A DNA stretch of 64,000 nucleotides, from assembly GCA_965178125.1 (NCBI GenBank), contig OZ237756.1, forward strand, positions 496,001 to 560,000, written 5' to 3'. Source of the stretch: Bilabrum cf. latius (lineage: Eukaryota). Made by a program: the position numbers and the translations under genes. The notes beneath the pieces were generated by a model that did no database searches, was not told where the DNA came from, and saw only the letters and a list, made by a program, of their open reading frames with translations. Shown in pieces: positions 26,768 to 60,635 of the stretch (positions are counted from its first letter, which is position 1; every line of letters starts with the position of its first letter).

Positions 26768-26850
26768 TTTAGTGTATTTACTATATGTTTTTATTTTTTC
26801 TAAAGTGTTTTGTCTTTTTGTTGAAAACTTATTTTGAATGATTGTCTTTT

Positions 26851-27212: not shown

Positions 27213-27318
27213 ATGCTATCCACAAATTCCAAAACGGATTTTGTAGAAATACTTCTACGCTTAAATAGTGGTTAAGAGAATTCATCTCCCCCAATATATG
27301 TTTCTATAATAAATATAT

Positions 27319-34297: not shown

Positions 34298-37200
34298 TCA
34301 CGCATCGCGCACGAACTCCTCCAGAACCACGGACATTTCCTGGAGACGTCCGAGCAGCTTCTCCCGCTCCTCTGCCCAACCTTGCCTGGCGCCCGCGGCA
34401 CCGTCCTCACGTGCCTCACGGACCTGCTCCGATCGGATTTCACCGGCCCGCCTCAACTCGTCCCGGAGCCCCTCGACCCTGCCCCGCAGAGTTGCGACCT
34501 CTTGCTCCAGAGCACTTGCTCGGTCCCGGGACTCTTCCAGCGCTCGTCTGCTCACTCCCGATTCTTGCCTGGCAGCGGCGGCCGACTGCTTGGCTGCTTC
34601 CACGGCCGCTTTCGCTTCTCGGCTCGCTTGCTCCGCTGCCTCCCTCAGCTGCTCCAGCCCGCGGACCGCCGCCCGCTGCTCCGATCGGATGGTCGCGTTC
34701 CGCTCTGACGCCTCACGGCACCGAGCGCGCTCCGAGTCCAGGTCTTGCTCCAGGGCTCTGATCCGATCCTCCTGCGATTTGATCCGATCCTGCAGCGCCG
34801 CCGACTGGGCTGCGTGCGACCCTGCCTCTGCCGCCTTGGTCGCAAGCTCCTCCCTCTCCTGCGCCCACCGCGCCTGTTCCCTGGCATACCTCGCCTCGGT
34901 CGATCGGAGCTGCTCCTTTGCGTGTCTGACGTCACTCTCAGAGGTGGCCAAAGTTGCTCGGCACCCTGCCAGCTCCTCCTAAAGTTCCGCAACGCGGCGC
35001 CGCAGCCTGCCAGCCTCTGCTGCAAAGGTGCCGGTGAGTCCGTCGGGGAACAAGGAGCTTTGATGCGCGGCGCCGGTTCCGCTACGCCTCTAGCCGTGCC
35101 CGCGTTCCTGCCCCGAATGCAGTTTTGTGGAGCGAGGTGGAGGTGCGGAGGCTGATAGGTCTGCGGCATGACTGGATCCAAAGAGAGCTGCGTCTCTCTC
35201 GTCGGCGACTGGGTGGGTAAACCGGCAAGAGGATCCAGATCCCCCTGGATCGCTCATCGTTTGCACAGCGCTGCTCTTGGATGCCTACCTCAGATCGCCC
35301 CGCATCGCCTCGAGCAGCTGCTCCGCTTGTTCCCTCCTGCCCCTCTCCGCCTCTGTCGCGCGCCCCGCTGCCCTCGTCCTCGCCTTCTAACGGTCCAGCT
35401 CCTCACTCGTCACACGGAGCTCCTCACTCGTCACACGGAGTTCCTCCCGGGCTGTCTTGAGCTGCTCCTTGAGCGCATCGGCTTCGTGCTCCGCTCTGCG
35501 GCGGGCACGTTCCGATTCCTGACGGGTTGCAGCCGCGGCCTCTGCTTCGTCCCTCAGCGCCTGGGACTCCTCGCGGGCGGCCTGCAGCCGGGCCTCCAGC
35601 GACTCGCAGTTGGTCGCAAATCGGGACTCCGTGGCGCGCGCGCTCTGCTCCGCAGCGGCTGCCTGCGACTCGGAATCGGAAAGCTACCTGCGAAGCGATT
35701 CTGCGACGTCCTCCGAAGCACTTGCTCGGCGCCTCTCCTGCTCGCACTCCCGGTTGGCCTGCTCTAGATCCGACTGGAGATGCTCGATGGTCCTCCGTGA
35801 GGCATCGTGCGCTCGATCGGAGCTCTCCTCGAACCGACTCCTGAGTCGCTCCGACTCCTCCCTGGCTTCCCGCGCAGCTGACTGCGCCGCAGATTCTGCC
35901 TCACGGGTCGATCGGAGCTAGGCGGCAGCCTCCCGCAACTGCTCCGTGCAATGCCTCACCCGCTGCTCCGATCGGATCGCGTCCTGCCGCAGCCTTTCCG
36001 TCTCCTCCCGCAAGTCCTCGTTCTCGGCTCGGAGCCCTTCGATGATGTTGGTGTGACGAGCGAGCAGACCCACGGCAGTGTGACGAGTGCCAGTGGATGC
36101 CCCATGGCGTGGGTGCGACCGCACACGTGGCGATACCCTTCCATCATCCAACTGCCTGCCAACATCGCGGTGAAGACGATCTGGAGCCTGGCCACGCCCA
36201 GCCCGGCTTGGCTGTGGCCATTGGCTGTCCTTGTCCGTGTCGCTGTGGACCCGTCTCCATGCATCACCCTCCTCCTCTTCGTCACCAGTGTTGTCCTTGG
36301 TATGCTGCTACACAGTGGTCTTCTCCTTTTTCTTATTCCTCCTCCTCCTCCTCTTCAGGTAGCTCCCCCACAGGTCATCGTTAAGAACCAGGGCCCGTCG
36401 GAACCCGCCGCCGCTGGCCTCGAGCGGGGCTCCCTGAAATTGCGCGGCGCCTGTGGTTCCGCTATAGCGTGATGGCGACTCACCGCTCAGTTCTGTCGTT
36501 TCCTGCTGCTTGCTCTCTTCGTTGTGTGACGAGTGCGACAGACGGCGGCTCCTGGGCGGCAGTGCCTCCTCCTCCTCCTCCTCCTCCACACTGGACGATC
36601 GCGATCGACGCCCGAAACCCCGGCCTGCTGCGTTTCCTATCCTGCTTGCAGCCGTGATGGCCCCGATCCCGATGCGCATGCCGCCCTGCCCCTCCTCCCG
36701 CCCGTGCTGCATTCCATGTCCCTGTCCCTGTCCCTGGGCCCGGGACGTGCTCCTGCTCCTGCTCCTGCTATTGCTATTGCTCCTGCTATTGCCGGTGTAC
36801 CCAGGCGATTGCCCATCGTCGGCCACGGGGCCGGTGGAGGAGCGAGACCAGGGCGAGCGCCTGTTCCGATTTTGGGAAGGGCGGTTTTGGGGAGCTTCAA
36901 AGGACTCGGAGCCGGAACTGCTGCCGGCGCGGGCGGCGCCGCGTGACTGGATCGGCCGCTCGTGGCGAGGCGGTGAGGTTCCGCTGCTGGCCATGCCCTC
37001 CGGCGCCGCGGCGAGCAGTCGTGCTGCCACGGGAAGCGGAACATCAGCTGCCATGGTCTCTGCGATTGAGGCATCGATCGGAGCGCGCTGCTCGCCGGCC
37101 AGGCGCATCAGCCGCTGCTGCCTGCGCCGTTGGAGGCCGGGTGAGCGGACCGACGAAGAAGCTCGCATTGCAGCGAGACTGCCACGATTAGAAGATGCTG

Positions 37201-37498
37201 ACGACTTGTGGGTAGCACCGTCATCGTCATCGCTGACCTCCGGGCTCATGCCACTGTCGGCAGCGGTGATGACAGCTGCTTGGCGCAAGAAACGAGCGGA
37301 GATTCCAGAGCTGCTCAGCATGGATGCACCGAGTCTTCGGGGGATGCCAACTGGCAAAGTGTCATCCAGACCACGTTGTATGCCAACGTGGTCGTCATCG
37401 ATGCTAGATTGAAGCCAGGATGAACTCTCATGACTACGTCCGGTTCGCATGGCCTTGCTCGCTTGCTGTCTGCGAAGCACGCGGTCGACCGCTGACAT
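34298..37498 (-). CDS. Large coiled-coil protein with low-complexity N-terminus
   Basis: Long E/R/A/Q heptad-rich frames joined by TAG read-through and probable introns. Ends at TGA 34298. Confidence 0.65.
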
Positions 37499-37891
37499 CT
37501 GCTAGCGTGCTAGTCTGCGTTTGCATGTAAGCAAGCAGTTATAGCACTTTGCGTTCCATTAATGCGAACACATCTTGGGTAGCGGTTTAAACGACCATTG
37601 ACTCGATGATACATTATCAGGTACTCATGGCAATAATGCTCACGTATTCTGCGCGCAATGCAGAGTTGAGGGATATAAGTATTCACGTTTACTGGCTCAG
37701 TTCGAATTTGATACTAAATGCGTACACAACTAGGCCTGACCCCACCATTCGTCGGCAGGCCAAGCAATCGTCATCATTCCAGCGGATGCAGACTGCAAGT
37801 GGTCCACCCAAGCGCGTGCGCCGCACCCTTGCCTAGTAGTGCCTACGTAATCATGCCACTATGCACCAAGCAAACATCTCAATGCCCACGC

Positions 37892-39359
37892 TCACACACC
37901 CCGCCGCTGGTGCGGCACGGTGGTCGATCCGAAACCGCGGAACCCGCCCCCAACTCCAACCGCACCGCCACTCCCCCCGCCTGCACCCAAACCGCCCGGC
38001 CCAGGCCTCTGCGGCTGCTACTGCTACTGCTATACACTCGGCCTGCCTCCAAGCCCAACCATCCCAGCCAGGCCCCCAGCCCCGACCCCGCCCCTAGCAC
38101 CCCCCATCCCACCCCCTCCGATACCTCCCCCCATCCCGGGACGCTTCGCCCCCACTCCACCGGTGGACTGGCCAAAGCCGCCGATCCCCATCCCCATCCC
38201 CGACCCAAACCCCCCGCCACCGCCACCGCTGCTTCCCCCGAACCTGGCCCCCGACCCGCCCTTGGTAGTGGGCAGCAGAGCGGACATGGGCCCGCCGGGC
38301 AGCTGCACAAAGTGCCGGACCAGGAGCAGCTGACCCACGGCAATGACGATCACAACGAGCACCTCGATCCCGGTGAGCCAACCCACCCTCCCGTTGTTGG
38401 TGTCGATCGTCTCCATGTGCCTCTGTTCCCTGTCCCTGTGCAGCATCTGCTTGGTGACCACCTTGCTGAGGCTCGCGTGGATCCTCTCCGTCATGCCCTT
38501 CATCTTGGAGACGTGCTCTGGCTCCTCCCCTCTCTTGACCCGGTTCAGCTCGTCCTGAGAGGAGGATGGTGACCCGGACAGCCGGCTGGACCGGATCGTG
38601 AGCTCGAAATCCACCACTTTCGCAGTCCAACGACTCATGGTGTTGTCGAAGCAGAACGAGTAGGTCCCGTCGCGATTCGCCGTGATGCTCGTTCCCTGCG
38701 TTGCGTACATATGTGACACGGCAAATACGGGCAGCTTTGTGTGCGTACAACTGGATGTAGGATTCGCAGGGCCTTCATTTGGGCTGTGGAATGCAACCGA
38801 AGCAGCTGAGCGTGCCCAAGAGGATACGCGCTCCGAAAGGAACATTGTAGCATAACATCGCGCAATACTGTATCGCACCTTCTTCAGCAAAGTTCCGACG
38901 ATAGCTCCGGTAGACTCGTCAATGTTGGAGAAGAGCAGCTTGTCGTACATGAGGCTACCGCTGGGATCTCCAACCTGCGCGCTCCGAAACAAGGCGTAGC
39001 GATCCAATCACCGGTGGATTATGCATAAACGCAGTGTATTTGCGTAAGGATCGCATCCTTACTTTCATTCGAATATCAAGCTTGCCGCCCCGAACCACAA
39101 CCATCCGCGGGTCGGCAGAGTCGCCCATTTTCAAGTCAAAATAGAGGCAGTCCTCGACTCTCGGCTCTACCTGCAATAGTATCCAATATGATTGGTTTGT
39201 GTGTTAGCAAGGCGCTGGGGCGAGTTGCAGAGATGGCTTGCAGTTGGCATCCGTTCGAAGCACCGCACTCCTTACCTAAAACTTTAACCTCTCAGCAATC
39301 TAGCCTGCCATGGCAGTTCCGAAAAGAACAAACATTGCACATAGCAACGGGATATACAT
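37892..39359 (-). CDS. p24/emp24 (GOLD domain) cargo receptor with extended Gly-rich tail
   Basis: Signal peptide, VEPRVEDCLY, GGKLDI, GTYSFCFDNTMSRWTAKVVDF, RDREQRHMETIDTNNGRV and a transmembrane helix. Several introns. Confidence 0.85.
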
Positions 39360-39558
39360 GATCACGATTGTAATAGGAAAGTTTGGCAGGAACGGTGAGA
39401 AATACAGAATTGTTGCCTCGGCGAAGTAGCGCGTTATTTTAGACAAGTTCGTCGAACTGCAACGGACGGGTACTTGAGCGAAATACTCGGATCTTGCCGG
39501 CTAGAGCATCGTCTGGTGAATTTAAAGTTGACATGGACTCCGTAGATCTGGTCCCGGG

Positions 39559-40560
39559 ATGCGTGGCGTGAGTGATCTACCAGGTTTTGGGCTTGGTGAT
39601 CCAGTTGCACACAATGGTGCGACCCATGTAGCGCTGTCCACCTGCCATTTTTATGCTGCTGTCCGCAGGGTCGATATCGAGGTGGATGAAGAGCAGTACG
39701 GCAGGGGGGAGCAGGCGAACTGCTGCCTTTGCGTATGCTAGTGCTCCTGCTTTCGACGATTGGTCTCGCTCAAGAAGCGGCGGTTCTTTGCACCCACAAC
39801 CGACCTGGACTTGACCTATATAACAAATAGAATCATTGCTGTTGGATTTCCCTCGGTGGGCTGCGAAGCTTGCTATCGCAATCCTGCATCCGCCATGTCT
39901 TCGTTTCTGCACGCCAGGCATCCAACTCGCTCGCTCGTTTTCAACCTCTGCCTGGAGGACAGCAGGGGATACGGACCCGATCGGCTGCCGAACCAGAAGA
40001 TCTGCAGAATTGGTTTCATCGATCATAACCCGCCTCGCCTGGAACAGTTCGAAGCGTTCCACTCCACAGCCGACACCTGGCTTCGAATGGACCCCCGACG
40101 GATCATTGCAGTGCACTGCAAGGCGGGCAAGGGCAGGACTGGAACGATGATCGTTGCGTACCTGGTGCACTGCGGTGCGTTTGCATCCAACGTGGACGAC
40201 TGCCTCCAGTACTACGGCTGGAGGAGGCACACCAAGGGGAGCGGGGTGACCATCCCCAGCCAGCAGCGGTTCGTGCGCTACAGTGCGATGCAGTCTGCCT
40301 GCATGCGGTGGTTCATGGCATTCAAAGCAAAGCAGCAATAGGCACAGGAAACTCAGGGTGCAGCGCACGATAGTGCAGCGCACGACAGCGCAATCGAGGA
40401 GATGGATGGTGAAATGCCAGGAGAGGTGCACCCCGTCACCATGCACGGTTCGCTGGGCGGGCGAAGGTTCTCTGCACCCCCTGGAAGGGTGGTCCGAAGC
40501 AAGTTGTCTCTTCTCGGTACAGGGACTCATGCCGGCACCGGGGCAGTGCCAGCGCTGCCG

Positions 40561-40601
<41 letters not shown>

Positions 40602-43600
40602 GGCTGCTGGGGGGGATCCGGTTGGGGGATAGGGATAGGGATAGGGTTCGGGTTTGGGTGTCATCACGGGGGGCGCTCTGGGCACAGGTGCATCGCACGG
40701 TGGTGCAGGGGCGTCGGTCCTGTAGTCCCCGGGGACCGTTGTGTCCGATGTGCCGGGGGCCAGCGCACTCGTCACACCCAGGCCATTGTTCTCCTCGGCC
40801 CCCTCTTCCGCCGGTGGAAATGGCACCAACCCATCCAGCGCCATCGGTGCTTCCGTGGTGGTGTTCCAGATAGGTTTCGCAGGGAACATGAGCGGCGCCG
40901 CGCGATCGCAAGGTGGGGTCCAGTAGATCTAGGTACACGCCAACTAGGCTCAGGTGGAGCATCCGTCCCTATCCCTGTCGGTGACTCCGCTCGTGAAAGG
41001 GAAGGGGCAAGGGTAGATGCAGGGGCAGGGGCAGAGGTTGTCTGACTCGATACACGACGATGACCATCCGGCCCATGAAGTGGATGCTCCAAGCATTCGA
41101 GAAGAAGAACAGGAACAGGAGCAGGGGCTAGTGACCGGTTCTGGTGATGGTGCTGGCGCCGGGGCCGGGGCCGGGGCCGGGGCTGGTGCTAGTTAGGACG
41201 AGGGTGTATTGGGCGACAAGAATGGTGCCACCACTAGCGGCGGACATGGCGAAGATCGTGAAGACGAGGACAAGGTGGTGCTGCTGGAGGCAGACTCTGA
41301 GGCCGAGGGCACCACGCCGTCCGGAATCAATAATCATCTCAGCCCCACGCACGACGGTGACGCCGACCCGCGCGACAGTGCGATGCACCTCGACCTGGTC
41401 ATGCCTTCACTCCCCGCGATGCCCCCCAGAACCCACCGGTGGATGCTGCCGCTCACTGGATCCAGGCACGGCATCGCCGCGGACCCCCACATGGTCGCAT
41501 CCTCCAAGGTGGAGGTACTCGGAATCGGAATCAGCGGGGCCCCGACGGCGTGCCGCAAGGCCGCCAAAGAGCAAGCTGGAAGCACCGACCCCGGCCCGAA
41601 GCTCATGGCTAGGTGCACGGACTGGTACGGCAGGGTGCATTTCGACTCTGGCAATCTGACGGGTGAGGAGGGGACTGCCTTGGAGGTTGCAACCGGTGAG
41701 CCGGCCGCTGTGGAGGATGGGGGCTGGCCCGGTGTGGTCTCACGGGCTTCTAGAGCATCTGCTAGCGGCGATCCCCCCAGCTAGCGGGCTGGGCATGGGT
41801 CATCATCTGGGTCAGCAGCGGCAAATGCTGGACTGGTGACCCGGCTAGCGAGCTGGGAAGGAGACACGGAAGGTGCACCGCATGGCAGTGCTAGTGATCA
41901 CCGAGATGGAGTAGGTGGTTCGGCTCCGAATGGTAGCGGGTGGGTGTCACTCCGTCCTCAGAGTGACCCCGAGATCGTGTCCAGAATGACTCCGAGAGCC
42001 CTCGCCAAAGCTGGCATCCTCACACCGGGCGGCCATGATATCGGAACCAAGACAGGCTCCGCGCCTACCGGCAGAGATATCGTTTCATTGGATTCCGGAC
42101 GATCCCTGCCAGCGGGATCGCTATCCGGAGTGAAAATTGGATCGCAGGGAAGGCCATCAGCCAGCAAGGTGCAGAAGATGCTTGGGATCGAACTTGCAAC
42201 CGGGGATAGGAGTAGTATGCTCCGACGGGAAAGTGCCAAGATCTCAGTGGGCGCTGGTGCTGTGAGTGTCGCTCACAGTGCAACAATTGATGCTGATGAA
42301 GATGGTGGTGCAGCCGGTGCAGGTGAGTGGTAGGGGCCAGGTGCTGCAAAGCAGGTGTCACCCGGGGGGGCACGGTTCTGGCAAGAAGAGGATAGCGGTC
42401 TAGACGAGGCAACCAGGGAACAAGGTCTATAGAACCTTCGCGAAGCCATCGTGAGGTCCCTGGGCGACGAGTGGAAGAGGGTGGTGGGGCATATCGAGGA
42501 TGGGGAGAGTGATGGTCTTTTTAGGGGCACGAGGGCGCGGGCCCTGCTTGCGGGAATCGACCCTGGGAGGCTCCGCGGCGCCTATCCCGGACTGGTGGCC
42601 TTGCGAAACATGTGCCAGAGCGGTCACAGCATCGCACAATCGGATGGAATGGAGACGAGGGTAGGACTGCCTCCGGGAATCGATCTCGCGTCTCGCGGCG
42701 TAGAACCGAGCGGCGTGTGGGGCGACGGTGTGGATCCTCTAGCGCTGCGGCAGAGAGGTGTGACGAGTGATGCAACCAGCGCATCGGTTCGAGTGGCCGG
42801 AGCGGGGCCCAACGGGGTGCAGGGTGCTGCAGCGAGTGCGAAGGATTGTGCCACGTGTGCGTCCCAGAGGCGAAGGGGACGGCGCGGCGACTACATCCCG
42901 CCTGGTTGCTCGATCGAGATGGCCACACTGGGCGGGTCGGGCACCGCAGGTGTGACGAGTGAAGGTACCGCCACCGCGGCTCCTCCCGAGTCCGCCGCCA
43001 GTGCAGCAGCTGCACCTGTAGTCAAAGAGAAGGCATAGATGGAGTCCGGCGCGATGCTCAAGTCGCTGATGGTGCCCCCGAGGGGGGACAAGCGATTCTC
43101 ATCTCCGCCCATGGGTAGGCCGCTAACTGCCAACGACGTCAGGATCGGATGGAGCGCAGAGGCTTCGGGTGGACTGGCCGTCCGCGGCGCGTTCCGGCTG
43201 GCGCTGTACTTTGGGCTGCAGCCGTCCAACGCGAAACGTCTGTGCCACTTGTGGCTGCATTCCGGGCTGCTTCCCTGGCCGGGGTGCGGTCGGGAGTTCG
43301 GTAGTTTATATTCCGAGTCGCATGCAAGGGCAGGGGCGGTGGAGGCGGTGCGGGGCCTGGCGGCGCGGGCCAGGGCGTGTTCCGATTCCGGATCGCTTGG
43401 GGAAGCTGCCGGGGTTGGTGGCATCGTGACTGCTGGGCTCACTCGTCACGGTGCGCTGCTTCCGTCGGATTTGCGCGGTACCAGCGTCCGCGTCACCGGA
43501 TGGAGGCAGGTCAAGCACGAGAGGATCGGGTGGTTTCACGCCACCAAGGAGGACATCGACGAAGCCTGCAAGGACCTGAAGAAAACCGAGAAATTTCCGG

Positions 43601-44169
43601 GAAGCTTCTCGGTGACGGTGCTGTACCGCGGTAGGGTACCGGTTGGGTGGGCTCCGGAGTTTACCGTTGAGTTTGGAAGGGCGCCCAGCGACACCAGGCT
43701 GGCTCAGACGGCTACTTGGGGGCTGGTGCGGCGGGGAGGCGGGGCCCAGGGAACAAAGCACCAGCAGGGAGCGACTGATGATGATGAGGGCAATGAAAGG
43801 TTGGGAGACTCCGGTGGTCCTGTTTCGGGCGCTGCGTTAGGGGAGTCGCCGCGTGGGGGTGCAGCGGGAGCGGGCAAGGCGACTGGTCCTGCCGAGGCTG
43901 GGTTAGCGGTGGCCGGTGGCCAGTCCACCGGTGGAGTCACTGGTCCACGGGTGCGGTACCGTACCGAGGAAGCAGTGTCCGGCAACCGTGTATCGAGTCC
44001 ATCATCTGGTGGTCAAACTGGCCGTGATGGTGACGCGGGTGACGTGGTGCTTGCGTCAGGGGTGGCAGCGGGTGAGACGGGTCACGCTCTCGAGTAGGGT
44101 GGGTCTGCAAGGGGCAGGGCGGATATGGAGGCAGACGGGCTCGGGGAACAACTTGATGATGACGAGTGA
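39559..44169 (+). CDS. PTEN-like phosphatase with long low-complexity insertions
   Basis: LVSLKKRRF, DLDLTYIT, YRNP, HCKAGKGRTG and GVTIPSQQRFV, with C2-like end IDEACKD..KFPGSFSV. A single frame runs through 10 or more TAGs to TGA 44169. Confidence 0.85.
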
Positions 44170-44367
44170 ACCTCGAGCGGCTTGCCGAAGAAGCGACATA
44201 CTAGATCTAGCGATTTGATTCTTTCCTTGCACACGCTCTCGGCTTGTTTCAACACTAACATGCGTCTACATTTGCAAAATCGGACACTGGTCGAAAAGAC
44301 GGCCGTGCTGCAATGCACTGCAAGCACTCTCCAGATCCACGGCGATCATCATGATTGGGCGCGCTCG

Positions 44368-47300
44368 TCACACCCCTCCACCAGTGTTGATGGGAGACCG
44401 CCGCGGCGTACCAGAGCCCTGGGGCGCACTGGTTCCGCTACTGGAGAGGGCCAGCCCGCCGCGGCGCCGCCCAACAGCGGAACCTCCCCTGGGCGTCCAA
44501 CCCGCCATGCCTTCGCCTTCGTCGCCATCCAGTGCGGCAGCATTCGCCATTCCATCCGTCTGGTTCCGCCGCAACCGGCGCCGCGGGATCGGTTCCGGGT
44601 CCGTGTCACCTGTCAAGTCGTGTTCCCTAGACCCAAAACCGGAATCGAAGCCCAGCTGCGACCCGCTGCCTCTTCCGCCCGGGGGTGTGCCGCCGGGCCG
44701 CAGCAGGCGGCTGCGACCACTCTCGGTTCCGCTACCGGCGCCGCGCACTTCAAATCCAGTCGCCAGCAGGGCACGCCCGGATTCGCGGAGTTTCTGCTCC
44801 GAGTCCGGCGACGGCATTTGCGCCGCGGTCCCGGATTGCGAGGCTTCTTGCGATCCACCTCCACGCTGGGCATGGTGCTGGTGCCTGCGGGGAAGCATGT
44901 ACTCGGAATCGGAATTTACCGACTCGATGGAGCCGGTTCGCCTGAATGCCTGCGCTTGCCCTGGCCCCCCTCCGCCTCTATGGTGGCCCCTGGCGCCTGC
45001 GGAGGCGCTTCCCGGTTCCGCATCCGAACGAGCGGCGCCGCGCATGCCTTTCCGACGACCGTGCGACGGCGGAGAATCTACCGTGCTACGCTAAGATGAT
45101 CGCGTGACGTCTTTATCTCCTTCTTGTTGCACCTGCTGCTTGGGGTGGTGCCACATCCTGTCGCGGCGTAGCGAGGACTAGCCGGAATCTATCCCAGGAT
45201 CGGCCCCGCTACGACCCAGTGTGCTGCCACCAGATGCCGATACTGGCGACTCGTCTGCCGGTGTCAGATTCGGCATGCTAAGTCCCAAACTGACACCCGC
45301 AGGGGCTTCCTCGCGACGATTGGCTCGGCTCCGACCAGACACACTCGTCACACCTGCTCCACCACCGCCCAAACCGGAAATGGAGGACGCCGTGGGAGAG
45401 AGGGAGAAAGATCCACTGGGCCCATCGGTCGACGTGCTGCGCATTTGACCACCGCGAGATTGACCATCTCCGCGGCCGATACCAAATCGATTGGATCCGG
45501 AGCCTCTCACCGACCCGCTCGTAGACCGACCTACACTCTCCGAACCCACCCCTCCCAGTCCCTGATTCTGCTGCTGCTGCAGGAGGTGCCGGCCCGCGCT
45601 GGCGAGAGCCGCCGAGTGCGCCGAGTCGTGGGATAGAGCCGTTGAACCCAGCGGAGAGTCACGAGTATTGGTCATTCGAGAGGACCCAGCCGCGGGCCAA
45701 CAGTCGCTCAGCTCCGTCTGAGGCGACAAACCGGAAGTGCTACCCGGCCCACGTCCACCGGTGGATCTAGCCCTGCCCCCGCTGCCCCCGCTGCTCGCAC
45801 GCACCACGAAGCCCTCGGAGGATGCGGCATGTGTTCCCTGGCTGCCGCCCCTTCGCACCGATGACCCACCTCGACCCACCGACACGGACCCGGGAGTGCG
45901 CGCGGCGCCGTCCATTTGCGGAACCTGCATGATGATCCTGCGCCCAGTGGCACCGACAGAAGCCTCGCTTCCCCTCTCTAGAGCATCCCAATCGCGGTCT
46001 ACTCTCGCACTCGTCACACCATCAATCGTCACACCATTCCTCCCAGCGGCTGCAGCCCCTAATCTGGCGCTGCTACCACTGGGGGCTCCGAACGCCTTGC
46101 CGTCCACCGCCATCTGCGCCTACGAAAGGACAGACGGGTGGCGCCTGAGTCCTGCGGAACCGGCGCCGCGCGATTGCCCCGGCGAGCTACTGGCGGGCAC
46201 GGCGGCGGGCACGCCGGTGGGCACACCGGATTCCACTGCAGGGCTGACCGGTGTCCCCATCAGGGAGCTGCGAAGGGACAAACCGGAACTGCCAGACCTC
46301 AGCCCCTGACCGATGGACGGCACGGTCGGCTGCTGTTTCTTGTTCTTCTGGAGCCGTTGGGTATGAGCCTGCGCGAGACGGGGGGATTGGGCGTGTGACA
46401 AGTGCGTGCCGGCCTGCGGGGAGTGGCCGTCGGAGTCACTCCGCCCCCTGCTCCTGTAAACTGACCCCAGCACGGTTGACCCGTCTGCTGCCCGGCTGCC
46501 GGACCCTCCAGACCCGCTGCGGAACGGACCGGCGCCGCGCAATCCGCGACCCACCACGTCGTCAAGGATTGCACCGCCAGCAGCAGCGGCTGTGCGGGCG
46601 GCAGATCCGGAATCAAAACTGGCATCACTTCGCATCCTCCTCGTACCCTGCGTGCCCTGCGCCAGCGGGCCGCCGCCTTTCCGGTGTGACGAGCGCTGCC
46701 CCTTTGTCGATCTGCTCGCAGCAGTTCCGGTCTTGCTTGCTCCACTCCACCCGTGGATTCTCCGTGGCCTCGCCAGCTCGGAGGGGGTCAGCGGCTCGTC
46801 CTCCTGCCGGCCGATGCCAGGGCTATTCCGGGCGCTGACTGGGCTGCTGCTTCCGCTAGTGCCTGCGGTGACGTCTATCCCACTCAGCAAGCCCGCGCGT
46901 GACGAGCTGGCGGTTCGCACCACACCGTAGGTCCCTCGGGAATCACTCGTCACACGGCCTCCAAGCGACTGGGGCGTCTGCACCGGGGACACCCTAGGCG
47001 CACCAGGGGAAGGGCGCGGTGCGCTTTGCTCGCCAGTGAGTCTATTTCCAACGTTTCCCTGGGTGCCTACTCCCTCTCCTGATCCTCCGTGCAGACCCGA
47101 CGGGTCAGCAACGAGTGCGTCTAAGAACGGCCGAGTCCCGGGTTCGAACCCGGGCTCCTTCCCGTCCCCGCTCCCAGTTCCGAACGGGGCACCACCCAGG
47201 GCACTGGTTGCAACTTCAACGTCCAGCGAGTCTTTACTGGAGATTCTCTGGGGCACTACCGAGTCACCCTCACCGGTTGCAACCGACAGTGGCGCTCGGC

Positions 47301-50300
47301 GCCTGGTCTGCAGGCCGGTTGCATTGTGGTCGGGCTGGTGACCCACCTCGCGATCGTGACCCTACGCTTCGCTGGGTGTCCTGACGTCAGCTGTCGGAGT
47401 CATTTCCACCGACACAGACACTCCGCTGGGTGCCCCGCTGGCTTCTGCCGGGTCCAAATCATCCAGGTCATCCGATGATCCGAGGTTGGAAGGGGAGCTA
47501 GATGCGCCCCCGGCGTCTAGTCGGAGCAGAGGCCGACGCCTGTCCAGCCCACCACCACTTGAGGCTTCACTCGTCACATCAATACCAGTGGCAGAGCCCG
47601 ATCCGGACCCGGAATCAGACTGGCCAACCGCGGGAGTCACCCCGTCCATAGAGTCGTATCGATTCCGAATCCTCAACGGATTGCCCACCTCCTGCGAACC
47701 AGATCCATACCCAGGTCCAGAGCCTGACCCGTTGGATGATGACCCGCGACGCTTTGCGTCCCGTCTGGCGCGCAGCTGCTCCGCGAGACTGGTCGCAACC
47801 GAGAGAACCGGCGTGTTCTCCACCTGCCTGTTGTCTTCAGGGGCGCTGTTCCCGGGATCCAGATCCGGCCTCGTCGCGATACTGAGACCCGTTGGGGCCC
47901 CCCGCTTGCCATTCTTTTTGAACCTAGCCCCCGGCAGGGACAGCTGCACCCCGCCGGCTTCGGTGTTGGCCGAAGCGCCGACCGTTTCAGGCTCCGAATC
48001 CAAACCAGCAGCACCCATCGCCTGCTCTCCAGGGGGTGACACGGGACTCGGAGTCGATTCTGCCTCTCCCCTATCCCGGCTAGATCTGGGCTCCGCGCCG
48101 AATGCCCGCCCGCCGCCGAAGAACCCCCCCGCCGCGTCCTCGTCAGCGCCCCCCCCCCTCCTCGCCCGCTCCCTTCGCTCCGCCACCGTCGACGTCTGGT
48201 TCCCGTCACGGGTCAACTCGGAATCGGAATGGTACTCGTCATCGTCGACGGCAGCGCCGCCCACCATTGCCGGTCGGCTGGGTGCAGGTTCAGGTGAGGG
48301 GCCGGGCAGCGAGGGCAGCGGCACTCCCCTGACTCCCTTCGGTTTTCGCATCGGAGCGTCCCGGGTTCGAGTCCCACCGGCGGGCTAAGAGCCCTGCTTT
48401 TCTTTCTTCTTTCTCTTGGGTAGCGTCAAAGACAGCCCCACGACAGCCCCATCGCTGTAGCGGTCTTCCGGTTTGGGCCCAGTTTCCGGCTCCGGATCGT
48501 CATCGTCCCACCCGGCACTGCGATCGGCTGCCCGCGCCGTGACCGCGTTCCTGCTCCGATCCATGCCGGCGTAGGCATCAGTTACGTCAGCGCCCCTGTG
48601 TGTCTTCCACCTGGTGTCAGTTACGGCCTCCTCCTCCTCGTCCTCCACGGTACCGTCACGCTTGCTGCTGACACCTGCGCCACCCACGGCGCCTTCAATC
48701 CCACCACCATAGTCACTACCATCGGCGACATCGTCCCCAAACGCTCCTCCGCCGCCGAAGCTGAACCCGCCTTTGGTGTCAGCAGCCCGTCGGGTCCTGC
48801 CCCCGTCCCTCTGCGGCGCAGACACTTCGAGGGCCAGCGCACTCGTCACACCGTCGTCCTCCTTGCTACGGGCCTCCTCCTCCGCGGCCTCCTGACGCAC
48901 CCGCTCAGCCTCCTCGGCCACGTCAAGTTCCGCAGAAAGCGCGGCGCCGGCCTCGGCCTCGCGCACGGTGGCCTCATCGGTCGCAACCCCCTCGCCCAGC
49001 AGCACGACCACCACGCTCACGTTGTCCCCCGACCCCTCCTCCACCGCCAGTTTGGCCAAGTGCTTCGAGGCCTCCTCGGGTGACTTGCCAAGCGCTAGCT
49101 GATGCCTCACGACTCCGATCGCCCGCCCGCAGTCCATCACGTCGAAAGCGCCGTCACAAGCCAGAAGAGCAAACTCGTCTTGCTCTGTGAGGAGAGTCGC
49201 GCTGACCTCCGCCTCCGATGTGACGAGTGGGGCGCCACAGCATCCATGCTTCATGTGCTTGTCGCCCACCGCTCGGGCAACCGCGAGGGAGTTCATGACC
49301 CGGCCGTTAGAGACCAACACTCCCGCGGTACCGACCCTCGCCCTCTCCACGGGGTCACTCGCCTTGTGATCCCGAGTCATGCACACCGCCTAACCCCCCC
49401 TGCAAAGTACGCACCTCGAGTCCCCAACATAGGCGCACACAGCCGCGATCCCGCCGCCACTGGCACCCACACCAGCAGACGGACCCTCATCACTCGTCGC
49501 ACCACCCCCGGAAACAGACACGCTCCCCACGGGTAGAAGTGCAAGCGCCACCACCGTGGTGCCATCGTCCTCGCCGACCTCGAAATCGGTCTTGATGGTC
49601 AGCGGCCACTCAAGGCTCAAACCCCCGGGCTTGCCCTTGCCCTTGCCCTTGCCCTTGCCCTTGCTACCGCGACGTTTGGCTGCGAATTTGTTCCCTGGTT
49701 TTCCATTGTTCTCCAGCGCAGCCAATGCCTTCCCCTGCCGCCTCTGCAAGAACGAGGGCATTGCGAGCGCGGGGGAGGCAGAGTGACCCCCGCCGGGAGT
49801 GACACCGCCGAGCCCCCCAAATCCACCGGTGGGTTGCACCTGCATGCCCCCGCTGCTGATGCCGAGTGCAGCCAGCTTGGAAGATCCAGGGCGACTGCTG
49901 CTGCTGCCACTTGGGGGCCTGCCCACAGCGTGAGAAACACCACCACCGCCACTTGACCCGGCAAGCAGCTGCAAGGTACTCTCCCCAGGACCCGCACCCC
50001 CACTGGATCCGGAGCCAGAAACGACCGCCCCCGCTCCCCTCTCGCCTTCACCGCTGGAGGCAGCCGCAGCTGCCGCTGCCACGCCCCCAAGCTGGCTTGA
50101 GGTGCTACTCCTCCTCCTCTTGCGCTTGGAAGCAATCGGAATCGCTTCGGGTTCACTCCCTGGGTTGTTTCCAGAGTCTAGCCCGCTAGAGGAGTCAATC
50201 TGGAGGTTCCTTGCCTTCCCATTGCTTGTCGTTCTCTTCGAACTCGCGCCTGCACCATCACGATCCCGATCACCGCCGATGTTGCTGCTGTTATTCCCGT

Positions 50301-53300
50301 CCAACCGCAGTCGTGGCACTGGAACAGGCGCATGCACCTCACCTGATCCTGACCCATCCGCAGGCGGACTGCTGCCCCCCTTCGCAGCGAGCAGGGCGGG
50401 CGATGGCACTTCCGGTTTGGAGGGGGAGATGTCGTCTCGGCTGGAAGTTCCGCTGGAATTGCGCAGCGCCAGCTCGCTTCCGGGCGTCGAGCTTGCCTTG
50501 CCCCCGCCTGCCCCCTCGCCTTCCACGCTGTGTTCCCTGGATCTGGATCTGGATCTGCGCTGTTCCCTGGACACATCGATGAAGTCGCTGTCGCTGAGCA
50601 CCTGCACTGCACTGCCGTACGCTCCCGCTCTGCCTTCGTCATCGTCGTCATTGTTGTCGTGTTCCGCCAGCTGCTGCTTCCCGCTGCCAATCGCTCTTCC
50701 TCCCTGCCTGCTATGAATGTGTTCATTCTCATTACCATTCCCACCACCATCATCATCAGTATCAGCATTTTCACCATCCTCGTCGCTGTCACTGTGGGCC
50801 AGGCTCGACTTCCTCCTCCCAGTGAGCACATCCGGCTGGCTGCGGGAGCGGTTCAGCGACCCCGCCTCCAGGACACCACCACCAACGGCACCGGAGGAAC
50901 CACTTCCGATTCCGGACGGTCCCCCGATTCCGACTCCGGATCCTCGGCTGGTGAGGTTTCGGCTGCCCACGGACACCCTGCTCTGGCTCCTGGCGGTGCC
51001 GGGCCTCTCGCCTTCTAGATCGGCTGCGGTCAGCAGCTTGGGCGATGGAGGGGGCGGCTTGCGACTAACTTCAGCTAGGAAATGGGCGTCTGCGTCCGCG
51101 ACCGCCCGCCACAGTGCACGCACGGCCTCCCCCCCGCGTGCCAGACGGGCCCTGAACAGGTCCAGGACGACCTCAACGACGAAGTCAGAGGCCCTGGAGC
51201 CGCCGTGGCCGTCGCACACCACGAACAGTGACACGGGCCCGCCCTCGTGACTCAGGCTGACGTCAGCGCGGGCCGCAGTGCCCATCCACCCGTGGTCTAC
51301 AGGGCCGATTCTCGGCGGTCGCTTCATCTTCACTTTCACGACAGCGGGAGAGTGGCCAAACCCGGCGCGGGTGTCCAAAGATCGCGTGCTGGCAGCGGCA
51401 GCGGCATCCGCGTCTCCACTGTAGGTTCCGCTGGATTGCGCGGCGCCAGGCGAAGCGGCGAGAGCGCGTGGAGGGCTCCTGGGACCGAACGCCAGGTCCG
51501 CAGCAGCGCCCTCACTCGTCACACCAACCAGCTGCGGCCCTCTGGGCCTGGGCCCGTCACTGGCTCCACTCATCACACGGCCTCGGGAGCCGGTACGGTG
51601 GGCGATGCTGCTGCTGCTGCTGCTCGCAACGCTCCCGCTTCGCCCCCCAACGCTCCCCGGTTCGAACCCCGCCAAAGGCAGCCTGGGGACGAAAAAATCG
51701 GCATTTGCCAGGTGCGCGTCTTCCATTTGGCCGCGCTTGCCCTGCTCGCCGAAAGCCCCGACCCGCGGGCGGACCGAATCCATGCGCGGCGCCAGCAAAC
51801 GAGGCTCCGGGAACGGTTTCGAGCCATGCTGCGACCCGGAATCGAAATAACCCGACGGTCCCCCACCCTCACTCGTCACACTACCGGCACCGGCGGACGG
51901 TCCGATCCACAGGGGCCTCGGCTCCCCGTGTCTCTGCAGCAGCCACCACACCCCCAGAGCGAGGTCGCCCACCCGGCAGCACTCTTTGTCCCAGAACACG
52001 CTCTCCCAGCCCAGCTGCCCCCCCCGCACGGAGCGGGTGGAAATGGCAGGACTCGGAGCCCGAAATCCGGCGCTCCCCGGGCGAGCGTCGGCTCCGGATC
52101 CGCGGGTCCGCATGAGGGGGAGCATGGGCCGGCGGGTCTCCGGGTCGATCACGCAGTACTGGTGGTACGCGTGATGTGACGAGTGGATGTGGTGTGACGA
52201 GTGCGATCTGCGCTCGGGTAATGACGAGGAGCAGCCCCCAACGGCGCCGGGTGACGGTGAGGCATCTCCCCTCCCGATCCTCCGATCTACGGGCGTAGGC
52301 GGCACGGACCCAGCCGTGGAAGATACCGCGCTGCCGCTCTCACTGGCGTCTACTCCAGTGTGACGAGTGCTATCCGGCGACTCGAAGTCGAATCCCGCTG
52401 GCCTGCGCCTTACCCACCTGGACTCGGACTCCTTCTCCTTCTCCTTCTCCTTCCCTGCTACTTGCTCCCCTGCTTCGTCTTCGCCGTTGGTGCTCGGCTG
52501 ACCCGCACCCACAGGGAGGGCACCCCGACCCCCACCATCACCCTTAGTGTCCCCATGGTGGGGGCCCACCCCGCCCCCCACGCTACTGGTGGAAGACTCC
52601 CTCTCCCCCTTCGAGTCCTCCCGCACTGCCTTCAGCGAACCTTCGTGAACCCCAAACGACCCGCTACCCCCCACTTCCCCCCCATCGACCGGGGAGGCCG
52701 CAGAGACTGCGATCCCGGTCGCGCCCGGGGTAAGTTCCGCAAGTGCGCGGCGCCCGCTCGAAGGCGTCGTCGCGCGTGTGGAGCCCCTGGAACCTGCGAC
52801 GCCGCGCGATCCTGATCCTGCGGAACCTGGCTCCTGGCTCGGGGGCCGCCCCACTGCGCTCGGCGTCCGCGGCGGCAGCGTCAGGCCCTGACCCCCGAAG
52901 CGGCGCCTGCCCTCCGCCGAAGAGGGCTATGAACCTTCGCTGAGGTTCGATAGGGCGCCTCCGGCTCCGCTGCGGGACCTGCTGTGCGCCGGGGAGCGCC
53001 TGTTGGTCGCAAATTCGACAAACGAGCGGAGGTAGCCAGGCACCGAGGCGTCCCGGAGGACTTCAGGCGTCTCGCAGCGGAGCTCTGGGGGACTTTCTGG
53101 GTAGTTGTCTGGCATGAATACTCGAAAATCCGCGGGTTCCTTGTGCTGTGTGTGCGGCGTGGGCTCGAACCTGAGCAGGAAGGAGGATGGGGACTGCCAT
53201 TCCACAGGCGGCTCCTCGTCCATTCCACGGCGCCTCCTCGCTAGTTTGCCGAGAACAGCCTTCAATTTAGTTTTCCGTATGCGTCTTATTTCCTTCTGCG

Positions 53301-53448
53301 TTTCCAGCCTAGCGATTCGATGCGATATATCCGGAGGAAGCTCCAAGTCTGTCGCAACGCATTCTGGGGCGCATGCCAGCATTTCAATCACATCCAAGCC
53401 GGCTCTATCCTTGCGCTCATGCTGAGCGAACTTATTCCACGATGCCAT
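44368..53448 (-). CDS. ~3000-aa protein with N-terminal RWD/UBC-like domain and PP2C (PPM) phosphatase
   Basis: MPDNYPESPP, then QGKRGQMEDAH, VCDGHGG, DGTT, VGDSRCVLCRGG(Q)AV..TRDHK, LAVARAVGD, LACDG and GSGDNVSVVVV. Seven ORF-track segments lie in one frame joined by TAGs; ends at TGA 44368. Confidence 0.85.
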
Positions 53449-53896
53449 AATTGTCGTGATCGGATGCAAGACCGCGAAGTCTCAGTGCAGGAAGCCCTGG
53501 CCGCACAGCGGTCGGGTCCGACCGAAACCGATTCAATGCAACACCAAGATGCTCCGGCACCACAGGACAGAACGCAGACGACTTGCCAATGTTGTGATTG
53601 AACACGCAACGATACTATGATAGGCTGCGAAAATGATTGAATCAATCTGCCCCGGGGTGCGCTGTTGCCGCTCGGCATCCCGACCGATCAATCCAACCGG
53701 CCGGTTCCGGAAATGCAGTGTGCGCGGCGCCAAGCTGCCGTCTGCAGTGCCATTACGGGAGATACCACCGATAGTATCGGCTCGATAGTTGCAGTCTGCT
53801 CCGCAAGATTTGTTCAACATATATCAATCACCACACGGCTGGCCTGTGGGTTGATACCGACTGTTGAGGAACTAATTTGAATCGCTGCTAGCCGGC

Positions 53897-56068
53897 ATGT
53901 CGGACAGGTGGAGCGATCGCGGCGGTGAATTCGACGAATTCGGTCGCAGGCGGCCCCCAAGAGCTGCTGGAGCATCTACTTCCGCGTCATCTGGCGACGC
54001 AAATGCCCCAGCTCCAGCGAGGGCGGAAGACGATGCTCCCCGACGAGACCGGAGGTTCGACGACAGCGATCGCCCACTTGACAGGTCCCGTGGCGGCTGG
54101 AGCCAAGACGATGGAAGAAATGATAGGCGTGGACACGACTACGATCGTCGCGGCCCGCGCGAAGAACGGCGGGGGGAGGCGGGACCGCCGGGTGATTCTC
54201 GTCACGGCGAGCGCGAGCACTATAGGCGGCCGCACGATCGCGGAGGCTACAGCGCGGATCGAAGGGAGTACCACCACGGCCGCGGGAATTACAACGATCA
54301 CGGCGGCGGAAGGTACGGTTAGAACCGAGGGTACCACCCCCATTCGCACCGGGGGGGTCCCCGGGGCGGAGGTTACAACCACCCCCACCGCCGGGGGGGG
54401 GGCAAGGACGACGGCAACGATGAGGACCGTGTCATGGAAGACGACATGGATGATATCACGAGGGACGCGAGGACAATCTTCGTGCAGCAGATGGTCAGCC
54501 GAGTGACTGATGACTGGGTCAGGGATTACTTCGAGCAAGTAGGCCCTGTCGCCAGGGTCAAGCTGATCAAGGACCCCCACACTAGGAAGTGCATGGGCAT
54601 GGGATACGTGGAATTCAAGAATCTGGACTCTGTCCCCAACGCTCTCCTGCTCAACGGACAAAAAATGTCCATGGAGACAAGGGCCTCCACTGCTGACGGC
54701 CTGCCGATCATGGTCTCCACCTGCGGGGCGGAGAGGGCGTACGCCCACCAGGCCGAGGACGAGATCGAGGAGGTGGCAAAAGAGAGAACCCTCTACATCG
54801 GGAATCTGCCACCGGGCCTAGAAGCCGCAGACGTCCGCGCCATCGCTGAGAAGATGGGGCCGGTCGCATCGGTCAAGCTGGAGGAGGCCCAGGAGGAGGA
54901 GGACGAGGACGAGGACAGCGGAGAAAGTGAAGATGAAGACACGGAAGGAGGCGGCGGCGAGAAACCCCCAGGGAACAAGAAGCCCCCAGGGAACAAGGAG
55001 GGCTACGCGATCGTCAAATTCCTCGACGACCAGGGGGCGACCAACGGACTGCACGGCCTGGCCGACATCAACATCGCCGGGTACACGCCCCATTTGGGGC
55101 TGATCTCAAAGAAGGGGGAGGTGCATGGGGCCAACAACGAGATCTGGAGGCCCGGTGACAAGGAAGCCCGGCGGTTATCGGCATCTGCCAAGGCCCAGAT
55201 CATCGCGACCCTCAGTACTGCGACTCAGGCCACCCTGTCCAAGCTTGGAGGGGCCGGCGCGCTCGCAGCAGCGGCTGCCAGCGCATCGAATGCCGCCACG
55301 GTTGCAGCAAGGGAGCAGAACGGCTCCGAATCCCTGGTGGCACCTGGGCTAGGTGAGTACCTCAAGAAGCAGTACGGGGAGGGCAGCGGTGTGACGAGTG
55401 GATCGGGAGGGGACGGGGGTGATGGTGCCGGCAGCGGGGAAGAAGCTGGGAACGGTGGCGCGACGAACGTGGTGGAGGGGGAGGGGATCGAATGGGACAA
55501 GACGGTTGGGAACCCCTCGCGGTGCGTTAGGATCATGAACCTCTTCGATCCAGCGAAGGTTCGCGAACTTTCGGACGAGGAGTACGACGATTGGAAGGAT
55601 GATCTAGAGGACGATGTGGGGGCGGAGATTGACCGCAAGGGCAGGATGGTGCACCTACGGGCCAAGAGCTCGGACGAGTGCGGGTCTGTGTTCGCGTGCA
55701 TGCGGAACGTCTCGGACGCGATTTTGGTTGCAACGGCCATGGCGGGGCGCTACTACGACAAGCGCAGGATCAAGGCCGAGTACGTCCCGGAAACAGAGTA
55801 CATGGACCGGTTTCCAAAGGTCGCGCCCAGGGTGGCCAAGATCGACGCGAGGCTGCTAGCCGGTGCAGGTGCCGGTGCTGCAGCAGCTGGGGCAGGACAG
55901 GGATCTGGAGCCAGTGGGGGCTCTGGTGCGCAAACCGGAAGTGCGGCAGGCGGCTCGCCTGCCGCCCCTGCATCGTCGTCGTCCCAGGCGCCTGCCTCAG
56001 CGATGCCGTACATGCCCATGGCGGCGATGCTGGGCGGGCCCAACTCGATCGCTGACATGTACATGTGA
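53897..56068 (+). CDS. RBM39: RBM39/CAPER-like splicing factor (two RRMs and a UHM)
   Basis: R/D-rich N-terminus, RTIFVQQM...GMGYVEF, LYIGNL and C-terminal SRCVRIMNLFDP...DLEDDV...GRYYD. TAG at 54320 is in frame. Confidence 0.8.
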
Positions 56069-60430: not shown

Positions 60431-60635
60431 CTAGGGCCTGACAGCCGGTCTCTGCACCAGTGTCTATAGTCAATGTTCTCGTGGCGCTGACGAAGCTCTC
60501 AAAGATGAAGTTGGATCATGCTGACTAACTGCAAAGGACGGTCCTACAAATTGCGCTGCATCCGCAATGACCTCCTTTGGACCTCAACACAAGAGATCAC
60601 ATCGGATTCTCAGCCGGCACAGACTCAAGAACCGC

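Follow-up and report, generated by a model that had tools for sequence, protein, structure and literature searches.

Why should one exact word of 12 nucleotides stand again and again inside the protein-coding sequence of a eukaryote? The question is raised by a 64,000-nt stretch of a single contig of Bilabrum cf. latius (OZ237756.1, positions 496,001 to 560,000), here called the window, within which all coordinates are 1-based. The word, M1, is the exact 12-mer GTGTGACGAGTG, counted on both strands. The window holds 16 exact copies, 7 on the plus and 9 on the minus strand, and 100 dinucleotide-preserving shuffles yielded none (mean 0.00, max 0). The initial annotation of this DNA had put the chance expectation at far less than one copy, which is borne out, and all 16 positions that it listed were recovered at exactly the same coordinates. 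Among the non-repetitive 12-mers of the window, M1 ranks first in number; 22 copies of its 10-mer core GTGACGAGTG were counted. Allowing up to two mismatches raises the number of matches to 35 (16 exact, 12 with one and 7 with two mismatches) against 4.26 +/- 1.98 expected (max 11). These include all seven near-copies named beforehand, six with one mismatch (1982, 36051, 46684, 47568, 49218, 52174) and one with two (43440); the copy at 1982 does lie in an intron, which belongs to a P4-ATPase gene and has GT..AG ends. When the 28 copies with no more than one mismatch are drawn as a logo, 12 informative, near-invariant columns stand out between almost flat flanks (a weak G before M1; A or C, then G after it). 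The contexts of the copies are unalike, except for 35404 and 35425, which form a 21-nt tandem duplication. The claim that M1 occurs in unrelated genes and in both orientations thus holds: the exact copies fall in four different genes, A to D (Table 1), with non-homologous flanks.

M1 is a word at the nucleotide level, and neither a peptide nor a codon-usage effect. When genes A to D were shuffled synonymously, keeping the amino acids and the codon usage of each gene (2000 rounds), a mean of 0.09 and a maximum of 2 copies were obtained as compared to the 16 observed; the enrichment therefore survives a null model that preserves both codons and amino acids, and its loss under such a model is what the initial annotation had named as a refutation. 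A model of independent codons predicts 0.0016 copies, corresponding to an enrichment of about 10,000-fold. The effect on the encoded proteins is visible in the tripeptide VTS, which occurs 13 times in genes A to D against 1.9 expected from composition, an excess of about 7-fold. A short linear peptide motif, G-V-T-S-x, selected in disordered regions, would account for the low-complexity setting of the 11 sense copies, each of which encodes xVTS[EDAGV], and for the comparison with P0020, a 90%-identical relative of the PP2C protein encoded by gene C, which keeps VTS at one orthologous site and has G-V-T-S where the window has G-A-T-S. Such a motif is nevertheless close to refuted by the spelling: 12 of the 13 VTS are written GTG-ACG-AGT, for which codon usage predicts 0.019 per instance, including the uncommon AGT (0.13 of the Ser codons), and the sole exception lies in the conserved PP2C domain. 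The synonymous shuffle speaks against it as well, and the copies in antisense orientation, in an intron and in an untranslated region (UTR) encode other peptides or none.

The orientation of the copies points the same way. Eleven exact copies are in sense orientation, all in the one frame xGT GTG ACG AGT Gxx, which encodes [G/R/S]-V-T-S-[E/D/A/G/V], and five are antisense and spread over three frames (H-S-S-H twice, T-R-H-T twice, L-V-T once); the sense frame that contains TGA is empty inside the open reading frames (ORFs). Accordingly, the different frames reported earlier are found among the antisense copies only, the sense copies sharing a single one, while the peptides GVTS and HSSH are both present in the translations, of sense and antisense copies respectively. 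From the codon usage of the window, the shares expected a priori are 0.43/0.11/0.05 for the three sense and 0.23/0.10/0.08 for the three antisense classes. The observed split of 11/0/0 and 2/1/2 fits these shares (Monte Carlo p 0.25), whereas equal use of the five open strand and frame classes is rejected (p 0.0001), and the sense share of 11/16 (0.69) agrees with the 0.59 derived from codon usage (p 0.61). Genes A to D also have, inside them or at their edge, ten copies with one mismatch, five in each orientation, and the P4-ATPase gene has two further antisense copies of this kind, one exonic and one intronic. An initial impression of a sense-strand, RNA-type signal was removed by this class calculation. 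Since the split is what codon usage predicts for strand-equal enrichment, it argues for duplex DNA rather than RNA or peptide; in the simplest reading, M1 is enriched similarly on both strands, and coding constraints set where it can stand. The codon-preserving shuffle, the identical codons of VTS and this distribution over strands and frames together support the earlier proposal of a DNA-level signal imposed on proteins.

M1 is not restricted to the window. Public metagenome contigs with two M1 copies 3-33 nt apart were scanned, which gave at least 120 loci. Among the matches listed, 106 of 120 loci have all copies in one cluster, and 21 loci are taken to come from relatives of the organism: 16 contigs of one metagenome, here called the relative, and the contigs L036, L054, L115, L064 and L113. 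The other 99 among the matches listed were set aside as mostly unrelated satellites (sample viewed: 12 + 17; GC 0.36-0.73). The relative's contigs, at least 16 in number, comprise 93,453 bp (GC 0.53-0.60) and contain 56 exact, dispersed M1 copies, of which 24 lie beyond the selecting pairs, against about 0.01 expected. Their long ORFs contain internal TAGs, and most of their M1 copies encode xVTS in the sense frame, some being antisense, as judged by a longest-ORF heuristic. One of them, L020, carries an ortholog of a CHMP1-like gene of the window (74-77% nucleotide identity) and, right after the stop codon of this ortholog, a pair of M1 copies in the 3'UTR in sense orientation. No intact M1 stands at the matching 3'UTR place in the window, and the alignment of the two 3'UTRs is too diverged to tell gain from loss. 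The relative's copies, and a pair in L020 that has no counterpart in the window, argue that M1 is a property of the lineage while single sites turn over. The outcome is mixed as to whether the enrichment is confined to this locus, which the initial annotation had named as a point against its proposal: within the window it is found in four adjacent genes only, yet it is dispersed over the 16 related contigs. A search of viral contigs for the same two-copy pattern gave 2 matches, both of low complexity and not informative.

A second word behaves similarly. The clearest other dispersed word in a k-mer census of the host parts of the window is M2, CAGGGAACA, extended to (C)CAGGGAACA and thus 9-10 nt long. 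It occurs in 14 copies against 0.28 expected from the codon model. In the relative it was found at 34 sites in about 100 kb of contigs that had been chosen for M1 and not for M2, and its 10-mer CCAGGGAACA occurs there 15 times in the 93,453 bp of the at least 16 contigs against a naive expectation of 0.18. Its codons are fixed as well, REQ being spelled AGG-GAA-CAx in 6 of 7 and PGN being spelled CCA-GGG-AAC in 4 of 5 cases. All three frames are used. The sense share of M2 is 37/46 (0.80; window 14/14), strand in the relative being called within ORFs of at least 250 codons, and it equals the codon-usage prediction (0.75, p 0.50), so that even this strong sense bias needs no RNA-level cause.

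These counts bear on the possibility that M1 is a cis element at the RNA level, recognized on the transcript by a guide RNA or an RNA-binding protein; it might then serve export or stability, or keep cryptic processing down in intronless ORFs of great length. Besides the predominance of sense copies, the contigs of two sequencing runs, X5 and X6, speak for it. The kind of these runs on record is a guess ('RNA?'), and we treat them as RNA-like because their contigs show spliced GT..AG joints, namely at the three introns of the p24/GOLD gene on the minus strand (38695-38877, 38973-39060, 39168-39272); for B, C and D, which are very long genes, the X5 and X6 contigs showed no spliced joints. The contigs span 15 of the 16 exact M1 copies (all but 40766) with 0 base differences and 0 gaps, and they stop close to the boundaries of genes, whereas the DNA run X1 carries on there. 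As these spliced, gene-bounded contigs carry both M1 and in-frame TAG codons, we infer, from contigs and not from reads, that both are present in mature transcripts. The 3'UTR pair of the relative is in sense orientation, too. Set against this are the antisense copies, 5 exact and 5 with one mismatch in genes A to D and 2 in the P4-ATPase gene, where chance predicts about none, and the sense shares of both words, which are those that codon usage predicts. Moreover, positions within the transcripts are not fixed, and Rfam and tRNA scans returned no matches. We therefore regard an RNA element, and with it the roles just named, as quite unlikely.

How the copies arose can be judged at two M1 sites and in CLP1. 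A segment of the CLP1 gene carries two M2 copies 21 nt apart; its alignment with seven homologs is free of gaps, and different residues occupy the M2 sites in the nearest of them (54% identity in this alignment). Substitution is therefore how these M2 copies arose, with a change of amino acids. For M1, the comparison covers two sites only, at the protein level: a search of representative sequences for orthologs yielded three proteins, by which two word sites were covered, while the RRM protein gave one distant match and the tail of gene C none. The antisense copy at 49218, with one mismatch, falls within APLVTSEAEV, a conserved stretch of PP2C, and P0020 has the same peptide without any insertion or deletion; at 49491, G-A-T-S of the window corresponds to G-V-T-S in P0020, again without insertion or deletion, and at 48840 both proteins have VTS. 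In these alignments, base substitution in place, and not insertion, gave rise to the word copies, which argues against pasted-in 12-mers.

Some observations favour an insertional origin. The word could be a tiny mobile or templated insert, a repair paste or footprint, or the seed of a slippage-prone minisatellite, of 12 bp or 9+3 bp (GTG-TGACGA-GTG), which survives only where the frame remains open. Its edges are sharp, all 12 positions have equal weight, its length is a multiple of three, and GTG stands at both ends; the TGA-holding frame is empty inside ORFs. Close pairs in the same orientation are in excess (4 neighbours within 30 nt, at spacings of 15, 18, 21 and 27 nt; simulation p 0.0008), M2 is also paired, and the relative has tandem arrays with periods of 15, 17, 18, 21 and 42. 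Three of the four close M1 pairs, however, share the word and not the spacer, and equal survival in the five open classes is what the frame test rejects. M2 is 9-10 nt long and stands in an ungapped conserved segment, and the two PP2C sites compared show no indel. Signs of a transposon, a miniature inverted-repeat transposable element or a footprint (terminal inverted repeats, target-site duplications, shared flanks) were not seen around the M1 copies. Comparison of four runs with the window gave no insertion or deletion and one base difference in all; they represent near-identical strains and hence offer no polymorphism at the word sites. Taken together, an insert of this type is unlikely. 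A micro- or minisatellite was rejected for the window, in which 35404/35425 is the only true tandem duplication; a splice signal was rejected since the three confirmed introns begin GTGCGA or GTAAGG, unlike M1; and a promoter-type transcription-factor site was rejected given 12 near-invariant columns and 16 of 16 exact copies inside ORFs. M1 is thus not a transposon footprint, a satellite, a splice signal or a promoter-type site.

The distribution of M1 over the window is patchy. All 16 exact copies lie in four neighbouring long ORFs, which are 4 of the 14 host ORFs (P of all 16 in A to D, 0.0002). CLP1, p24 and the P4-ATPase exons are among the host genes without an exact copy, and so is the CHMP1-like gene, which is outside the set of ten remaining ORFs. 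The copies sit in permissive, low-complexity parts of long ORFs, and one copy with one mismatch in an intron. Part of the patchiness may be explained by the lower tolerance of short conserved proteins, a factor outside the enrichment model. The host DNA is eukaryotic, with a GC content of 0.52-0.66, and is interrupted at about 12.3-29.3 kb by an AT-rich insert (GC 0.37-0.41). This insert (~12300-29300) encodes an rve integrase with a chromodomain, a DUF5906 primase-helicase, a family-B DNA polymerase (PolB), an ATPase, a Sputnik-type major capsid protein and a minor capsid protein. With this gene set, the earlier label of virophage is correct. The 17-nt word CCAAGGATTTCCCAAGG is found near both of its ends, at ~12.6 and ~29.0 kb.

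No M1 with 0 or 1 mismatch was found in the virophage-like insert, in agreement with the initial annotation, which had suggested, among other roles, a self-marker that foreign DNA lacks. In such a scheme, the host cell would tell resident from foreign, viral DNA by M1. The 8 virophage ORFs contain neither M1 nor M2, although at host-like enrichment about 2.5 and about 3.6 copies (14/0.28 x 0.071) would be expected, respectively, and the joint P is about 0.002-0.006. Uptake sequences of bacteria are likewise absent from recently acquired genes, according to the passages of PMC2817400 that bear on this. The lack of M1 is not informative by itself, since about 2.5 expected copies in these AT-rich ORFs leave a P of 0.08 for none. 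In addition, the composition of the virophage is strongly different, and ten other host ORFs have no exact copy either, so that host DNA is not marked in general. The self-marker thus came out weak, and we consider it very doubtful.

The explanation that we favour is that M1 is a lineage-specific DNA word acting on double-stranded DNA, neither a peptide motif nor mainly an RNA signal; in our estimate this is evenly balanced between right and wrong. A putative sequence-specific reader of duplex DNA would exert a directional force toward M1, and this force would create and keep exact copies wherever the protein tolerates them. It might be selection that favours, at particular loci, sites bound by a multi-contact DNA-binding protein, e.g. 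a chromatin, recombination or repair factor. Alternatively, repair or gene conversion could be biased toward the word, a molecular drive as has been proposed for HIP1 and shown for uptake sequences. We lean slightly to the drive-like form over selection for binding sites, because the copies stand at weakly conserved positions, are codon-compatible and lack a fixed place in genes. More tentatively, and with considerably more doubt than belief, we suggest that a free-living eukaryote and its relatives carry bacterial-type molecular-drive words (M1 and, at the least, CAGGGAACA), substituted into both strands of nuclear coding DNA by a repair or gene-conversion bias or by a reader of resident versus viral DNA, a process whose strength would suffice to alter residues of conserved proteins, CLP1 among them.

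Several points weigh against a lineage-wide DNA word. The ten other host ORFs (4,720 codons) contain no exact M1, while 11.2 copies would be expected at equal fold enrichment; uptake sequences are evenly spread, in contrast to this patchiness, which may reflect a function of the locus or of a class of genes. Copy numbers are small, and the codon model behind the expected values counts M1's own codons. Beyond the window, the evidence base consists of the relative's contigs, which were chosen for a close M1 pair, and their strand and frame calls come from a heuristic that erred in at least one case, L020. In the relative, M1 with a spacer of 3-9 nt is often tandemly amplified (periods 15, 17, 18 and 21), and in one 42-nt array M1 is as variable as the remainder of the unit. 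With M1 no better kept than its spacer in this array, slippage contributes, and constraint on single copies is not evident.

Table 1. Carrier genes and copies of the words M1 and M2 in the window (aa, encoded residues)
Feature	Position	Strand	Context
gene A	34298-37558	minus	coiled-coil ORF
gene B	39532-44169	plus	PTP/dual-specificity-phosphatase-like (PTP/DSP) ORF
gene C	44368-53481	minus	PP2C ORF
gene D	53876-56068	plus	RRM ORF
M1 exact	35404..35415	-	sense, gene A, aa R-V-T-S-E; first of 21-nt tandem pair
M1 exact	35425..35436	-	sense, gene A, aa R-V-T-S-E; second of tandem pair
M1 exact	36078..36089	+	antisense, gene A, aa T-R-H-T
M1 exact	36524..36535	+	antisense, gene A, aa H-S-S-H
M1 exact	40766..40777	-	antisense, gene B, aa L-V-T
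M1 exact	42758..42769	+	sense, gene B, aa G-V-T-S-D
M1 exact	42950..42961	+	sense, gene B, aa G-V-T-S-E
M1 exact	45342..45353	-	sense, gene C, aa G-V-T-S-V; TTCCGGTTTG 16 nt upstream
M1 exact	46008..46019	-	sense, gene C, aa G-V-T-S-A; 15 nt from 46023 copy
M1 exact	46944..46955	-	sense, gene C, aa R-V-T-S-D
M1 exact	48840..48851	-	sense, gene C, aa G-V-T-S-A; VTS also in 90%-identical P0020
M1 exact	51513..51524	-	sense, gene C, aa G-V-T-S-E
M1 exact	51870..51881	-	sense, gene C, aa S-V-T-S-E
M1 exact	52192..52203	+	antisense, gene C, aa H-S-S-H; 18 nt from 52174 copy
M1 exact	52358..52369	+	antisense, gene C, aa T-R-H-T
M1 exact	55389..55400	+	sense, gene D, aa G-V-T-S-G
M1 one-mismatch	1817..1828	+	antisense, P4-ATPase exon, aa H-S-S-R; TTCCGGTTTC 16 nt upstream
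M1 one-mismatch	1982..1993	+	antisense to P4-ATPase gene, inside GT..AG intron (~2148-1938)
M1 one-mismatch	36051..36062	+	antisense, gene A; 27 nt from 36078
M1 one-mismatch	44362..44373	-	internal TGA (44368-44370) is stop codon of gene C
M1 one-mismatch	46023..46034	-	sense, gene C, aa G-V-T-I
M1 one-mismatch	46393..46404	+	antisense, gene C
M1 one-mismatch	46684..46695	+	antisense, gene C; TTCCGG fused on 5' side
M1 one-mismatch	47568..47579	-	sense, gene C, aa D-V-T-S-E
M1 one-mismatch	49218..49229	+	antisense, conserved PP2C segment APLVTSEAEV; same peptide without indel in P0020
M1 one-mismatch	49491..49502	-	sense, gene C, aa G-A-T-S-D; P0020 has G-V-T-S-D, no indel
M1 one-mismatch	51567..51578	-	sense, gene C, aa R-V-M-S-G
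M1 one-mismatch	52174..52185	+	antisense, gene C, aa H-S-S-H
M2	8228..8236	+	sense, CLP1, aa S-R-E-Q; conserved ungapped segment
M2	8249..8257	+	sense, CLP1, aa A-R-E-Q; 21 nt from 8228 copy; conserved ungapped segment
M2	8847..8855	-	sense, ORF 8749-10308 (minus), aa P-G-N
M2	34875..34883	-	sense, gene A, aa R-E-Q
M2	38424..38432	-	sense, p24/GOLD gene, aa R-E-Q
M2	40880..40888	+	sense, gene B, aa A-G-N
M2	42414..42422	+	sense, gene B, aa R-E-Q
M2	43747..43755	+	sense, gene B, aa Q-G-T
M2	45832..45840	-	sense, gene C, aa Q-G-T
M2	49689..49697	-	sense, gene C, aa P-G-N
M2	50531..50539	-	sense, gene C, aa R-E-H
M2	50561..50569	-	sense, gene C, aa R-E-Q
M2	54969..54977	+	sense, gene D, aa P-G-N
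M2	54987..54995	+	sense, gene D, aa P-G-N; 18 nt from 54969 copy

Further 10-mers recur, dispersed, in the window. TTCCGGTTTG occurs in 9 exact copies with unrelated flanks (6798, 7475, 31001, 45370, 45727, 46279, 48466, 50410, 55931), and GCTCCGATCG also in 9, within 7686-37075 and with unrelated flanks, often near ATGCCTCAC. For GGTTGCAAC, the window gave 10 copies and the relative 10 sites; the relative's contigs hold GCTCCGATCG four times and TTCCGGTTTG twice against a naive expectation of 0.18. In two places (1791-1828, 45342-45379) an M1 copy has the word TTCCGGTTT[C/G] upstream of it at a distance of exactly 16 nt, and TTCCGG at 46679 directly adjoins an M1 copy. A composite element TTCCGGTTTG-N16-M1 was considered and dropped, since there are two such cases and one fused copy in the window and no such link in the relative.

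Concerning the genetic code, genes A to D are open only when TAG is a sense codon. The five internal 'stops' of gene C are all TAG (46120, 47362, 48385, 49390 and 52927, minus strand); one of them lies within the Pfam PP2C match, and the PP2C TAG position is occupied by Arg in P0020. In the P4-ATPase gene, a first alignment placed TAG in variable columns only, and a second alignment fixed one site: the TAG at 2176-2178 (minus) corresponds to a conserved Gln, that of ELGQ[IV]xY[IV]FSDKT in two solved P4-ATPases. The virophage uses the TAG-sense code of its host, its ORFs between 13665 and 27271 having 5-17 TAG each. ORFs are terminated by TGA in 11 genes and by TAA in 2. TAG is thus a sense codon in host and virophage genes, and the organism reads it as glutamine, a code which we take to resemble NCBI table 15; this marks the lineage as unusual and poorly sampled. 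All 11 TGA stops listed have G just before them. Genes B and C are convergent, and each has its stop codon within M1-like sequence (TGACGAGTGA at 44160-44169; the one-mismatch M1 at 44362-44373). Elsewhere, a repeat of at least 60 nt that contains GGCAGGCCCAT is present in four copies (4758, minus; 32127; 60119; 63749) and is a multi-copy gene family or element of unassigned kind. The ORFs 56963-58492 and 60597-62096 look paralogous, and the relative's contigs L064 and L108 match window positions 4658-4840 at the protein level.

The genes that carry M1 look cellular and expressed, and the integrated virophage is without the word. If such words are substituted into both strands, a sequence-specific process would shape eukaryotic coding sequence independently of protein function, candidates being a binding factor, biased repair or gene conversion, and the composition of the proteome would be biased, as with the roughly sevenfold excess of VTS. 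The 12-mer would then be a handle for finding its reader and might help to tell resident from foreign DNA in a host with integrated virophages. A narrow full-text search matched M1, its complement and its 11-mers, among the papers listed, only to primer coincidences; likewise, a narrow full-text search for comparable over-represented 12-mers in eukaryotic coding regions returned unrelated papers only.

Exact, hyper-abundant words in bacterial genes, such as uptake sequences, Chi and highly iterated palindrome 1 (HIP1), are a classic puzzle and reveal reading machines that work genome-wide. The uptake signal sequences (USS) of Pasteurellaceae and the DNA uptake sequences (DUS) of Neisseriaceae are exact words of 9-12 bp that recur every 1-2 kb or so on either strand, for the most part within genes; they are spread roughly evenly over the genome in hundreds to thousands of copies, and the competent host has an uptake receptor that prefers the word. 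M1 is like them in being exact, hyper-abundant, present on both strands, inside genes and beyond what codon and protein constraints explain. The likeness extends to coding behaviour: as far as PMC2817400 goes into it, the frames of uptake sequences follow codon compatibility, poorly conserved genes and positions are preferred, the encoded tripeptides are raised, and recently acquired DNA lacks them. The M1 frames fit the codon model, VTS is raised, the copies lie in low-complexity regions, and the virophage has none. M1 differs in that its carrier is a eukaryotic nuclear genome with spliceosomal introns, its spread is patchy (four genes of the window), and close pairs and tandem arrays are common. 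To our knowledge, no natural transformation or uptake machinery has been described for this organism.

HIP words, which are palindromes of 8 bp, go together with cognate orphan methyltransferases. HIP1 (GCGATCGC) and the alternate cyanobacterial palindromes resemble M1 as hyper-abundant exact words in coding DNA, and differ in that M1 is a non-palindromic 12-mer whose reverse complement is another sequence. In the relevant sections of PMC4390886, the origin of HIP1 is ascribed to a sequence-specific repair bias and not to a function at each site. The third comparison concerns words that mark a territory. Recruitment motifs such as the 12-bp MEX motif of the C. elegans rex sites and the Drosophila MSL recognition elements are degenerate, far sparser and mostly non-coding. 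A word of about 12 bp whose clustered copies mark a territory would fit the 21-kb block and the homotypic pairs of M1; M1 is exact, dense and coding, though, and the territory seen is four genes. By analogy, M1 would stand closest in behaviour to USS/DUS and HIP1 while being a member of neither family, because it is non-palindromic, carried by a eukaryote and, in the window, unevenly spread.

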